The notes under the pieces: model-generated
Told to the model about the DNA's origin: nothing
Databases searched by the model: none
The model's input: the letters and a program-made list of their open reading frames with translations, nothing else
Part shown: positions 11,446 to 55,110 of the stretch, one piece after another
Layout of the letters: every line of letters begins with the position of its first letter
How positions within the stretch are numbered: position 1 is the first letter of the stretch
Source of the DNA: Bdellovibrionota bacterium
GTDB lineage: Bacteria > Bdellovibrionota_C > UBA2361 > OMII01
Length of the DNA stretch: 64,000 bases
Assembly: GCA_044337105.1 (NCBI GenBank)
Contig: JBIIOE010000004.1
Coordinates: forward strand, 3,172-67,171
Reading direction: 5' to 3'
Position numbers and translations under genes: made by a program

Positions 11446-11604
11446 AGAGCAGGAAGATCAATCATTTTTCTGTAACTAGCTAAAGAGTGCTGGCGGGCCG
11501 ATGATGGTAGGTGATGGTGCAGCCAAGATTGATAAGATTAGCCCCGAAATGCAGGGTTAGATGCCATGTGACGAGTAGTTGCTAGGTGCAAAATCCGACG
11601 CTAA

Positions 11605-11706
11605 CCGATCACTGATTCCGAAACTGCCGATCACCTGTTCCGAAATGACCGATCACTGATTCCGAAAGTGCCGATCAGGCATTCCGGAGCTGCCGATCTG
11701 CCCCGG
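11605..11706 (+). repeat. 22-bp tandem direct repeat, about 4.5 units (CCGATCACTGATTCCGAAANNG)
   Basis: Units start at 11605, 11627, 11649, 11671 and 11693. The first three are nearly identical and the last two are degenerate. Confidence 0.9.
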
Positions 11707-11744
11707 GCTAGGACCGAAGCGACCTTGAGGGGTAAACCAGCACG

Positions 11745-11872
11745 CCTCTATCTCTGGTACCCTCTATCTCTGGTACACCCCAACTGTCACTAACTCGATA
11801 TCAGAATGATTGCCGCCCTCTATCTCTGGTACACCCCAACTGTCACTAACTCGATATCAGAATGATTGCCGC
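11745..11872 (+). repeat. 56-bp tandem duplication (two full units plus a 16-nt partial), each unit carrying the REP-like motif CTGGTACACCCCAACT
   Basis: Units 11761-11816 and 11817-11872 are identical. The partial copy is at 11745-11760. Confidence 0.95.
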
Positions 11873-12053
11873 CCATTCAATTGTGCCCAAAGATGCTCGT
11901 AATCCGCGGCCAAGTGACTGTTTGCGCCTTTGACAACAACTTTACAAAGGCGCTGAGAGGGAATGTCAGGTTACGAACCCGATTCCGACAACACAACGCC
12001 TGTGGCTATCAGTGTAGCCGTGCGATTAAAGTAGCGAGGATGGACTAAGGTAC

Positions 12054-13022
12054 CTACCAGACATTACATAGCTTTGGCGCAGGAGGAATAAAACACTCCT
12101 TGGGCCAAGGGATATTTTTTGCCCCTTGCTTTAAGAGCTCGTAGCATCTTCTGCACTTGAGCCGAAATGCGCGGAATCGTCTGATATGCGCCGTACGAAT
12201 CTCTTTTGTAGAGCCGTACGCAAAGATTCGTCGCTCTTTAGGAGGTGGAATGTACGCGTCTGTTACTACATAGCCTTCGAGCCTCTCAGGGATCGGCTCA
12301 GACCTTGAAAGTTCAGCCTCTCCTTCTCGAACCTGCCTTATGATTCTTTGGCGTACCGCTTCTATTTCCTCGGGTGTGGTTACCCCAAAGGCTTCGAGCC
12401 ACTTAAAAGGATATATTCGAAGTGTATGAGTCTCTCGTCCCTGTGTCCTCTCCTGTAACTGCTGAACGACCCTCTGCTCTTCGCGTACGGAAGGATTCTC
12501 TTGAGACAAAGGATTGATATCAGTCGCATATATCCAAGGGATCTCCTTCTCAATGCAAGCATTTACGTCTGCGGGGGCAGAGAGGAACTCCTTCCAGGTA
12601 TGAAGCCCCTTGAACGAATCGATTGTCTTGCTCTGCCTGGCTCGGACTGGATTCAAGAAGGTGTACACCATTCTCTGCACTGCAATGTCGATATCCAGTA
12701 CCTCTACCACACTGTCATCGTCATCCCACAATGATAAGCTCCGTAGAGCTAGGAGGCGCTTTAGGAAGTCCGTAATCCGTTTCTTGAGCCCGCCATGAAA
12801 GTCACGGAGAGCAGACGCATCGAGGGAGTAAAGCTGAATATGAGGATGGTTAGCCATCCAGACGAAGGCACAGACGATGACCTGCTCTGTTCGCAAGAGG
12901 CGAGCAATAATACTCTGAAGTAATAGAGCAGTAAGTCTCCTAGCGGGCAGGGGGAGCCCTTGCTTCGACCGGAAGGTCAACTCATACATTCGCTTGCTGA
13001 AGTACATTCTTGGCGATCTCAT
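12054..13022 (-). CDS. Y1 HUH-type transposase-like protein (IS200/RAYT superfamily; REP-associated tyrosine transposase candidate)
   Basis: There is an HUH motif in VWMANHPHIQLY and a catalytic-Tyr motif in VYTFLNPVRA. The gene is flanked by inversely oriented REP-like repeats. Confidence 0.75.
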   Translation of the reverse strand: MRSPRMYFSKRMYELTFRSKQGLPLPARRLTALLLQSIIARLLRTEQVIVCAFVWMANHPHIQLYSLDASALRDFHGGLKKRITDFLKRLLALRSLSLWDDDDSVVEVLDIDIAVQRMVYTFLNPVRARQSKTIDSFKGLHTWKEFLSAPADVNACIEKEIPWIYATDINPLSQENPSVREEQRVVQQLQERTQGRETHTLRIYPFKWLEAFGVTTPEEIEAVRQRIIRQVREGEAELSRSEPIPERLEGYVVTDAYIPPPKERRIFAYGSTKEIRTAHIRRFRAFRLKCRRCYELLKQGAKNIPWPKECFIPPAPKLCNVW

Positions 13023-13054
13023 TCCCTGTTAATCGGAAGGAAGGTGATCTTGTT

Positions 13055-13211
13055 GCTTCACGCGAGAAGAAAAGTTGGGGTGTACCAGCGACGGGACCAG
13101 CGACGGGGGAAGAAAAGTTGGGGTGTACCAGCGACGGGGGGCTTCACGCGAGAAGAAAAGTTGGGGTGTACCAGCGACGGGGGAAAAGTTGGGGTGTACC
13201 AGCGACGGGGG
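13055..13211 (+). repeat. Array of four REP-like units (AAAAGTTGGGGTGTACCAGCGACGGGG), the reverse complement of the motif at 11770 and 11826
   Basis: GTTGGGGTGTACCAG occurs at 13074, 13117, 13160 and 13188. The array begins 33 bp upstream of the transposase-like gene start. Confidence 0.95.
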
Positions 13212-13269: not shown

Positions 13270-13748
13270 CTGTGCCCCCTCTTTCTTCTGAGGTTTTTAG
13301 AGGAGCGTTTCTCAAAGGGTGCACCGCTGCGACAGACGACGTATTGAGCGTGCTCCCTTGTCGCTTGAGAAGTTCTCAATACAGGACGACATCTTGACCT
13401 ACACCACCAAGGACGGTGCAGCTCACGCATTCGATGCTCTGGAATTTCTTGCAGCGCTCTCGGCGCATATTCCTAAAACCTACGAGTCTCTAACAAGGTG
13501 CGATGGAAGGTACTCCTGTAGGCGCAGAGGTGAACGCGCAAAGCTCTCACCTCCTCCAGCAGAAGAACAAGAGAGCGACTATCGGAAAGAGCTCCGCAAC
13601 AGTTCTTGGGCCGCGTGCATAAAGCGTATTTATGAGATCGACCCACTAGAGTGCCCCAAATGCAAATCGCAGACCTGTCTCGCCGTAGCCTAAAAGGCGA
13701 AGGAGGATGAGGATCATCGCCTTCATCCAAGAGGAGACTGCAATGTGA
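13270..13748 (+). pseudogene. C-terminal remnant of an IS91-family (Y2/rolling-circle) transposase, frameshifted and truncated
   Basis: FDALEFLAALSAHIPKTYESLTR..RYSCRRRG...ACIKRIYEIDPLECPKCKSQ is followed by a stop. MRIIAFIQEE continues in another frame (13707-13748). The whole N-terminal catalytic part is absent. Confidence 0.7.
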
Positions 13749-45370: not shown

Positions 45371-45549
45371 CCTAGGGAAGCGCGGCAAAACCTACCCCAT
45401 AGTCTCACTTTTGAAATAACCACGTGAACGTGCTCGTGCTCGTAAACGTACCCGAAAAACTCGAGGTTTTTGTTTCGGGTACGTTTACGTTCACGTTCAC
45501 GAGCACGTTCACGTGCGAGGAAACATAGGTTTTGCCTCGCTTCCCTAGG
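45371..45549. repeat. Palindromic MITE-like element, copy 1 (179 bp)
   Basis: The 22-nt terminal inverted repeats are CCTAGGGAAGCGNGGCAAAACC. The roughly 40-bp internal arms are built of CGTGAA/TTCACG hexamer units around a central AACTCGAGGTT. The reverse complement matches 54938-55110. Confidence 0.9.
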
Positions 45550-54920: not shown

Positions 54921-55110
54921 GGGTTTTGCTTCGCCTCCCTAAGGAAGCGAGGCAAAACCTATGTTTCCTCGCACGTGAACGTGCTCGTGAACGTGAACGT
55001 ACCCGAAACAAAAACCTCAAGTTTTTCGGGTACGTTCACGTTTACGTGCACGTTCACGTGGTTATTTCAAAAGTGAGACTATGGGGTAGGTTTTGCCGCG
55101 CCTCCCTAAG
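54921..55110. repeat. Palindromic MITE-like element, copy 2 (inverted relative to copy 1) plus an extra terminal repeat at its left end
   Basis: 54938-55110 equals the reverse complement of 45371-45549, apart from one 6-bp (one hexamer unit) indel and roughly ten substitutions. 54921-54960 forms an additional terminal hairpin. Confidence 0.9.

Follow-up and report, generated by a model that had tools for sequence, protein, structure and literature searches.

A stretch of 64,000 nucleotides (the window) from the genome of a Bdellovibrionota bacterium (assembly GCA_044337105.1, contig JBIIOE010000004.1) contains a gene for a Y1 HUH tyrosine transposase that is bracketed by short repeats. Positions 11746-13211 of the window probably constitute one intact, autonomous element resembling an insertion sequence (IS), of the TIRtron type, with a single gene for a long transposase of the TIRYT class. 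The repeats on both sides of the gene are the element's own terminal inverted repeats, which are locally reiterated, and not repetitive extragenic palindromes (REPs). A first-pass annotation of the same DNA had interpreted the locus as a REP-associated tyrosine transposase (RAYT) gene flanked by REP clusters.

The locus comprises a single open reading frame (ORF) on the minus strand (12054-13022), which encodes a protein of 322 amino acids (P0001) containing the sequences MANHPHIQL and VYTFLNPVRA. The 16-mer CTGGTACACCCCAACT is found exactly at positions 11770 and 11826 on the plus strand, downstream of the gene (its right-end side), and inverted copies on the minus strand start at 13073, 13116, 13159 and 13187, upstream of it (the left-end side). 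By chance 0.01 matches would be expected, against the six observed, and a count of six was not attained in any of 100 shuffles. The copies on the right side lie within an exact 56-nt tandem duplication (11760-11815 and 11816-11871; direct-repeat family D3, 100% identity over 56 nt), and a partial copy of the 56-nt repeat is located at 11745-11769. In the array on the left side five units follow one another head-to-tail; the 16-mer is present in four of them, and the remaining one is reduced to the tip (approximately 13096-13109). The first-pass annotation had described the 322-aa protein with its NHPHIQL and YTFLNPVRA motifs, and the two downstream 16-mers within a 56-bp duplication plus partial copy, in agreement with our data. 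Its four inverted upstream copies were also recovered, although each of them lies one base away from the coordinate given there, and the tip-only fifth unit had been left unlisted. The element is made up of the following parts.

11746..11760, minus strand: outermost right-end unit, tip only; reads GTACCAGAGATAGAG on the gene strand, and its outer edge is the exact boundary of the element
11761..11816, minus strand: second right-end unit, an exact 56-nt re-copy that holds the core; 16-mer at 11770-11785
11817..11872, minus strand: innermost right end, running into the interior of the element; gene strand ...GACAGTTGGGGTGTACCAGAGATAGAGG; 16-mer at 11826-11841
11873..12053, minus strand: 3′ non-coding region from the stop codon to the right end; about 240 nt together with the innermost unit
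12054..13022, minus strand: gene for the Y1 HUH tyrosine transposase P0001, 322 aa, with catalytic core and C-terminal domain
13023..13072, minus strand: 5′ leader from the left-end core to the ATG, with the motifs GCAAC(A/T) and CGAT(T/G)A
13073..13097, minus strand: innermost left end; gene strand (GT)CCCGTCGCTGGTACACCCCAACT; inverted partner of the right end
13098..13211, minus strand: four more head-to-tail left-end units at approximately 13096-13109 (tip only), 13110-13141, 13142-13183 and 13184-13211

Each of the further left-end units begins with a C-run tip, CCCC(C)GTCGCTGGT, and reaches inward for 12-42 nt; the outermost edge, at 13211, forms the element's left boundary. The left and right ends form an inverted repeat that is perfect over 19 nt and matches at 82% over 28 nt (inverted repeats I1-I8), and the inverted repeats detected pair only these two ends, about 1.3 kb apart. 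The element measures about 1.28 kb without the re-copied end units and 1,466 bp with them.

In a true RAYT-REP system (REPtron) a domesticated, single-copy RAYT would maintain a genome-wide population of REPs or REPINs, to which the flanking units would belong. The RAYT-like core fold with its Y-x3-NP motif and the inverted repeat clusters around the gene are consistent with such a system, as is one related genome (G048), in which a distant family member has an end core present in 647 copies against 0 for the control. The copy numbers in the genome studied here (3.8-Mb assembly, 225 contigs) argue against it. Only nine copies of the 16-mer with at most one mismatch are present, where the first-pass annotation had expected hundreds for a REP, and a BLAST search of the element against the genome placed every one of them in the intact element or in one of three decayed copies. 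The degenerate family core occurs 7-10 times (reversed control 0), and the subfamily core was counted 0-18 times in each of 60 relatives. The first-pass annotation had stated that confinement of the 16-mer to the locus would refute its reading, and in substance the 16-mer is so confined. Furthermore, the units are non-palindromic, as had already been noticed in the first pass, and single-stranded folds of the two end regions were no better than those of shuffled sequences (z = -0.01 and +2.2). The gene itself is neither single-copy nor syntenic, with remnants in this genome and a multi-copy, patchy occurrence in relatives, and the real palindromic family of the genome (about 100-200 copies) is unrelated in sequence and not adjacent. 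The whole-genome counts together with those in the 60 relatives ruled out a genome-wide REP family, and folding against shuffles ruled out a hairpin or REP structure in the ends. The REPtron reading is thus largely refuted for this genome and we regard it as extremely unlikely; with it fall the REP clusters and the single-copy status that had been assigned to the transposase.

The three decayed copies are 86-90% identical to the intact element. One (C103) retains the final 60 codons together with the 3′ region and right end, a second (C35) the 3′ region and the right end, while the third (C205) is internally deleted. The four copies in the genome share GTACYAGAGATAG(G)n, after which their sequences diverge. 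The family is present in 55 of 61 related genomes of the order, where a single genome has up to 22 matches, and several sister genomes have multiple full-length copies (E about 1e-165 to 1e-172). The subfamily core is restricted to 20 of the 61 genomes (1-18 copies each).

On the right side the element borders on another mobile element. The sequence at 11584-11745, including a 22-nt array at 11604-11691, represents the left end, with multiple repeats, of an IS21-family element. Intact IS21-like copies in sister genomes (loci L078 and L079) read ...CCAGCACGC / ATCGCAAAGG, where the slash marks the position of the junction, and continue past it as ...CCAGCACGC / ATCGCAAAGGAGG... into a reading frame. 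This frame starts with MGRTRKELSVIKVREILRLKEQGLSNRQIA, which we take to be the N-terminus of an IstA-like protein with a helix-turn-helix. The window reads ...CCAGCACGC / CTCTATCTCTGGTAC at the same place. Since L078 and L079 are continuous across the junction and the window diverges there, foreign DNA begins at 11746, and the right tip interrupts the IS21 element at 11745/11746. No flanking direct repeat or target duplication was seen by eye in loci with placeable edges, a non-exhaustive inspection. The truncated genome copies, the patchy multi-copy distribution in sister genomes and the interrupted IS21 element indicate, from sequence comparison, that the element has moved. The 22-nt array is iteron-like in appearance and belongs to the IS21 end; one related genome (G029) has many copies of it at contig ends.

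To characterize the protein, P0001 was aligned with 32 homologues. The residues N58, H59, H61, Y120, N124 and P125 are invariant. In the HUH motif N58-H59-x-H61 position x is occupied by P, V, L, A or Q, and the motif sits at the start of a strand (residues 61-66) in the AlphaFold model. Y120 is the only invariant tyrosine and is located on the helix 111-127 of the model; the tyrosine motif Y120-T-F-L-N124-P125 corresponds to Y-x3-N-P, the class 2 type. The model has a mean predicted local distance difference test (pLDDT) of 83.9, with the core strands and helices within residues 11-127. Its best match in the PDB by Foldseek is 4ER8, the E. coli TnpA_REP bound to a REP hairpin (E 6e-6, probability 1.00, template modelling score 0.70 on the target). 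The next matches, 2A6O, 2XM3, 2VJV and 2F4F, include the TnpA proteins of IS608, ISDra2 and IS200.

The sole NCBIfam match of P0001 is REP_Tyr_transpos (NF047646; residues 4-136). All 32 homologues match the same model weakly and below its cut-off, with a best E of 9e-8, and Pfam Y1_Tnp is unmatched in all of them. A distant paralogue in the same genome (C11) passes Pfam Y1_Tnp with 25.6 bits (cut-off 23) and aligns to P0001 over residues 15-321, so the link between P0001 and Y1_Tnp is a transitive one. Because of the invariant motifs, the 4ER8 fold, the weak matches to the RAYT model and the C11 paralogue, residues 1 to about 135 of P0001 are a RAYT-like class 2 (Y-x3-NP) Y1 HUH catalytic core. 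The first-pass assignment to the RAYT-like Y1 HUH enzymes is borne out by the same evidence. A hidden Markov model search with Y1_Tnp, which it had proposed as a check, gave a divided result: P0001 itself is unmatched, while the C11 paralogue passes and the fold matches Y1 enzymes.

The remainder of the protein, residues ~140-322 (about 190 aa, compared to the 150 aa estimated in the first pass), forms a C-terminal domain that is conserved throughout its length across the 32 homologues. It contains C290-x-x-C293, C310 and a tail of the form WP..CF.PP.P. For this domain Pfam and NCBIfam yielded no match, and PDB sequences, searched with the single sequence and with a profile, gave none that was credible. 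Foldseek matched nothing to it in the full model, and a separate model of the domain (pLDDT 74.7) had no fold match in the PDB either (best E 1.3). CecR_C and DUF7375 came up as weak Pfam matches in a few members (E 0.005 or worse) and were dismissed as noise. The domain probably supplies end recognition or oligomerisation. A database search revealed 107 clusters of full-length homologues (about 311-322 aa), which with few exceptions are annotated as hypothetical and all lack a Pfam domain. In an exhaustive profile search at least 281 representative clusters (50% identity) had E <1e-30 and 1,177 had E <1e-3. The view that the protein is about twice as long as a usual RAYT and represents a divergent family without annotation is in line with these results.

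About 45 homologous loci were gathered from genomes and metagenomes, and the positions of the core were measured across about 35 of them. About 40 loci have a common layout of left end, approximately 50 nt, ORF, approximately 200 nt of non-coding sequence and right end. The left core GGTRCASSCCAAC lies 63-68 nt before the protein match in most of 27 loci, and 78-106 nt upstream where the tblastn match begins further in. The right core follows the end of the protein match by 193-298 nt (28 loci), mostly by 193-242 nt. From the tip inward, an end is composed of a C-run (G-run on the opposite strand), 5-7 variable nt and the conserved CTGGTRCASSCCAAC, and the two ends of an element are imperfect inverted repeats of about 25-28 nt. 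Thirteen nucleotides of core are conserved family-wide and the tips vary. The variable tip belongs to the element: two copies from one metagenome-assembled genome (L022 and L025) share their right end through GTACCAGAGATAGCAGA and then diverge.

Reiteration of the ends is a property of the family as well. Additional outer copies of a 12-nt tip word accompany 11 of 21 left ends and 11 of 26 right ends, whereas the internal controls have none. The re-copied units are arranged head-to-tail and start at the exact tip of the element; many of them show another break close to the core GTRC. On the left side the start is almost always 9-13 nt ahead of GGT, and the units reach 12-42 nt inward; in most right units GTACC is the start and the end lies 10-12 nt past the ACC of the core. 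Two breakpoints recur at the edges of the arrays, one at the tip boundary and one at the core GTRC. Copies within one array are often 100% identical over 41-56 nt, non-core sequence included, and the number of units differs between close relatives: five left units in the copy studied here, three in L018 and one in L021, and three right units here as compared to one each in C103, C35, L022 and L025. According to these identities and numbers the end arrays are recent and dynamic.

Multi-site ends are well known from other transposons such as Mu, Tn7 and IS21. The reiterated units could accordingly be functional arrays of transposase-binding sites that are kept by selection, rather than scars of cleavage and rejoining, and the presence of extra tip or core copies at about half of the family's ends fits this idea. 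The identity of array copies even outside the core shows their recent origin, the number and extent of units vary between close relatives, and single ends are found in many elements. Moreover, a fixed outer edge combined with a variable inner edge is better explained by copying than by a conserved spacing of sites. We consider selected binding arrays unlikely.

The gene might also be decayed or domesticated and immobile, with arrays that arose by replication slippage unrelated to the protein. Only one intact copy is found in the genome, and the other three are truncated and diverged by about 10%. Nevertheless, the ORF is intact with every catalytic residue, and several sister genomes contain multiple full-length copies. 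Slippage fails to explain why the edges fall at the tip and at the core GTRC in dozens of independent elements with different tips, and internal control words were never duplicated. An immobile gene with slippage-derived arrays is highly improbable.

Among the systems described so far the TIRtrons are the closest kind. RAYT-like genes flanked by inverted repeats were named TIRYTs and the corresponding elements TIRtrons (Di Nocera, De Gregorio & Rocco 2013, PMC3733652); a GGGGWSAS motif is reported there for the inverted repeats in the majority of examples, and the repeats sometimes form moderately abundant, clustered families. Most TIRYTs fall into TnpA_Y1 subclass 2.1, with a median length of 238 aa and a helix-turn-helix tail (Quentin et al. 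2018, PMC6006769). The element in the window shares with the published TIRtrons the RAYT-like Y1 HUH gene with Y-x3-NP, terminal inverted repeats that are not REPs and keep a fixed distance to the ORF, ends that are sometimes dimers or clusters, and repeat families that are moderately abundant in some genomes. A G-rich block is also common to both, GGGGTGTA here and GGGGWSAS in the published motif (PMC3733652); the core here, GGGGTGTAC, matches the latter at six of eight positions, or fully if one T is skipped, and the variants GGGCTGCAC and GGCCTGTAC occur. The differences concern the length of the protein (322 aa versus a median of 238 aa) and its tail, as the Bac_DnaA_C, HTH_23 or HTH_28 tail that characterizes subclass 2.1 in the published account was unmatched by Pfam in 32 of 32 members. 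Furthermore, the tip-anchored re-copies and the ~200-nt 3′ non-coding region are unmentioned in the passages of PMC3733652 and PMC6006769 consulted here, and the family here is clearly multi-copy and patchy, hence IS-like, in comparison with the elements portrayed there.

Subclass 2.3 comprises multi-copy proteins of ~325 aa from Chromatiales and Alteromonadales that occur without REPs (PMC6006769). Judged by this description, similar length, several diverged copies per genome, the lack of nearby REPs and a large, subclass-specific C-terminal domain are common features. In subclass 2.3, however, much of the length is owed to insertions of 10 and 55 aa in the core, and the motifs are NHYH and YVDLNP (PMC6006769). 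The core of the proteins analysed here is compact and all extra length is C-terminal, the motifs are NH(P/V/L/A)H and Y(T/A)(F/Y)LNP, and the host belongs to the Bdellovibrionota. Judged by the published descriptions, the element fits the TIRtron/TIRYT kind and matches neither subclass 2.1 nor subclass 2.3, and we read it as a new long subclass of TIRtron/TIRYT.

With the RAYT/TnpA_REP enzymes P0001 shares the catalytic core, for which 4ER8 is the best structural match, the HUH motif with a single tyrosine in Y-x3-NP, and a gene position between inverted copies of the presumed substrate. Unlike the RAYT/REP/REPIN systems (Nunvar 2010; Bertels & Rainey 2011, PMC3116915), the element has neither palindromic REP hairpins nor a GTAG tag. 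The 16-mer is dispersed in nine copies in this genome, the element is neither single-copy nor vertically inherited, and the protein is twice as long.

An ordinary IS of the IS200/IS605 family, in which the repeats would be subterminal recognition structures, has to be considered as well, since the Y1 HUH fold is common to both and the TnpA proteins of IS608, ISDra2 and IS200 are among the fold matches. The lack of an obvious target duplication, the presumed single-strand cut-and-paste movement, the single gene and the size of ~1.3 kb are compatible with such an IS. The failure of Pfam Y1_Tnp to match P0001 or any of the 32 aligned homologues is not, and the tyrosine lies in Y-x3-NP, as in class 2 RAYTs, instead of Y-x3-Q (motif classes as outlined in PMC6006769). 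The protein has 322 aa instead of ~150 aa, tnpB is missing, and the ends are inverted repeats without hairpins, while IS200/IS605 elements have asymmetric ends with subterminal hairpins. We therefore judge an ordinary IS200/IS605 element very unlikely. The first-pass annotation had named ends of an IS200/IS605-like element as the alternative to REPs; this came nearer without being exact, given the missing subterminal hairpins, the Y-x3-NP motif and the lack of a Pfam Y1_Tnp match for P0001 itself.

For the TIRtron-type element the following mode of action is conceivable. The enzyme would bind the conserved core, which might be presented as a duplex stem if the two ends paired with each other in single-stranded DNA, and would nick one strand at the tip boundary by means of Y120 and a metal site at H59/H61. 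The element would then move as single-stranded DNA without target duplication. The reiterated end units may have been left behind by recurrent rounds of cleavage and rejoining, or by copying that was started anew, at the two breakpoint sites; they would then be neither REPs nor conserved binding arrays.

Several points weigh against this interpretation of the element and its enzyme. P0001 has no Pfam match, with Y1_Tnp (PF01797) unmatched at E up to 0.1-1, and its REP_Tyr_transpos score of 22.3 bits is far below the cut-off of 80. To our knowledge all Y1 transposases act on hairpins, which leaves the reading of non-palindromic inverted ends unexplained. The left and right core within one element often differ at 1-3 positions, which weakens the notion of a stem formed by the two ends. 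The origin of the re-copied end units is a conjecture, and replication slippage at a protein roadblock would give a similar pattern. Of the two junctions of the copy in the window one is anchored; beyond the other lies an unrelated IS91 remnant, which means that a rearrangement is part of the local history. A search with the IS21 flank (left in window coordinates) found no clean empty site, because the IS21 continuation, sought as empty-site partner, was not found anywhere in this genome and the other flank is the IS91 remnant.

A relative of the same order demonstrates how far the end motif can multiply. Genome G048 (five contigs, 2.6 Mb) contains six near-identical copies of a distant family member, which matches the profile with E 5e-45, C-terminal domain included. 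Its left-end core CTGGTGCCACCCTT is present in 647 copies with at most one mismatch, whereas the control has none, and the cores form long arrays of 32-130-nt units in the same orientation, each headed by a core. From this count REP-like proliferation appears possible for the protein family, in a non-palindromic, head-to-tail form and not in the genome of the window. The array loci of G048 include L073 (C3:198600-200200), L074, L075 and L076, with units that start with (C/T)TGGTGCCACCC(TT/AC). Spacer types recur in these arrays, and some units resemble a left core fused to a right tip (CCCTT-CAGGGAC).

We tentatively put forward that the enzyme is a site-specific, single-strand array builder, which adds non-palindromic, core-headed units head-to-tail beside its own ends; this is possible, though we would not expect it. 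If so, the enzyme would have its own end boundary as target, the arrays of three to five units in the window would be the small-scale form and the approximately 650 units of G048 the runaway form of a repeat proliferation of an undescribed kind, unlike the scattering of palindromic REPs. The TIRtron literature that we found is descriptive, and we located no published test of the TIRtron mechanism. The family provides material for the question how a class of enzymes known only from action on single-stranded hairpins handles non-palindromic inverted ends: many natural variants that keep a 13-nt core and differ in their tips, breakpoints that recur and are likely cleavage sites, an additional conserved domain without fold match, and G048 with hundreds of copies of the end motif. 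In addition, annotation is corrected for genes that lack a Pfam domain and were called hypothetical, and for end arrays that could be confused with REPs, iterons or CRISPR-like repeats.

The 3′ non-coding region is kept at 90% identity in the truncated copies C103 and C35, and a region of similar length is found in all homologous loci. It has no Rfam match at E up to 1 and no excess of single-stranded structure (z = -0.01). A 60-aa ORF antisense to the element within this region (window 11866-12048, plus strand) is probably spurious. In the leader, the motifs GCAAC(A/T) and CGAT(T/G)A recur family-wide at fixed spacing in the upstream sequences of homologous loci. A sigma-70 consensus scan of 13023..13072 found nothing; the leader may serve as a promoter or a binding site.

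Four further long Y1 paralogues with 24-36% identity are encoded in the same genome (C11:10938-12255, C32:110-939, C20:4788-5741 and C89:6420-7016). In those on C11 and C32 the layout is unchanged and the core is a different one, CTGTACCGGGGCTAC, which is reiterated upstream and inverted downstream; they thus have reiterated inverted ends of their own (CCCTGTACCGGGGCTACTA).

The IS91-family remnant outside the left end is a C-terminal fragment at window positions 13319-13693, about 100 nt from the element. A similar IS91 fragment lies between two right-end copies in an unrelated locus (L049:2720-2902). As IS91-like fragments have at least 15 matches in this genome, the adjacency probably reflects clustering of mobile elements and not targeting.

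The abundant palindromic repeat family of the genome (about 100-200 copies) is represented in the window at, for example, 45424-45532 and 54943-55027. A tie between these repeats and the P0001 gene was considered and rejected, as they have no sequence in common and are not adjacent. The repeats form long hairpins with GTGAACGT(G/A)C... arms, flanked by GGGAAGCGAGGCAAAACCTA as an inverted pair, and are REPIN-like.

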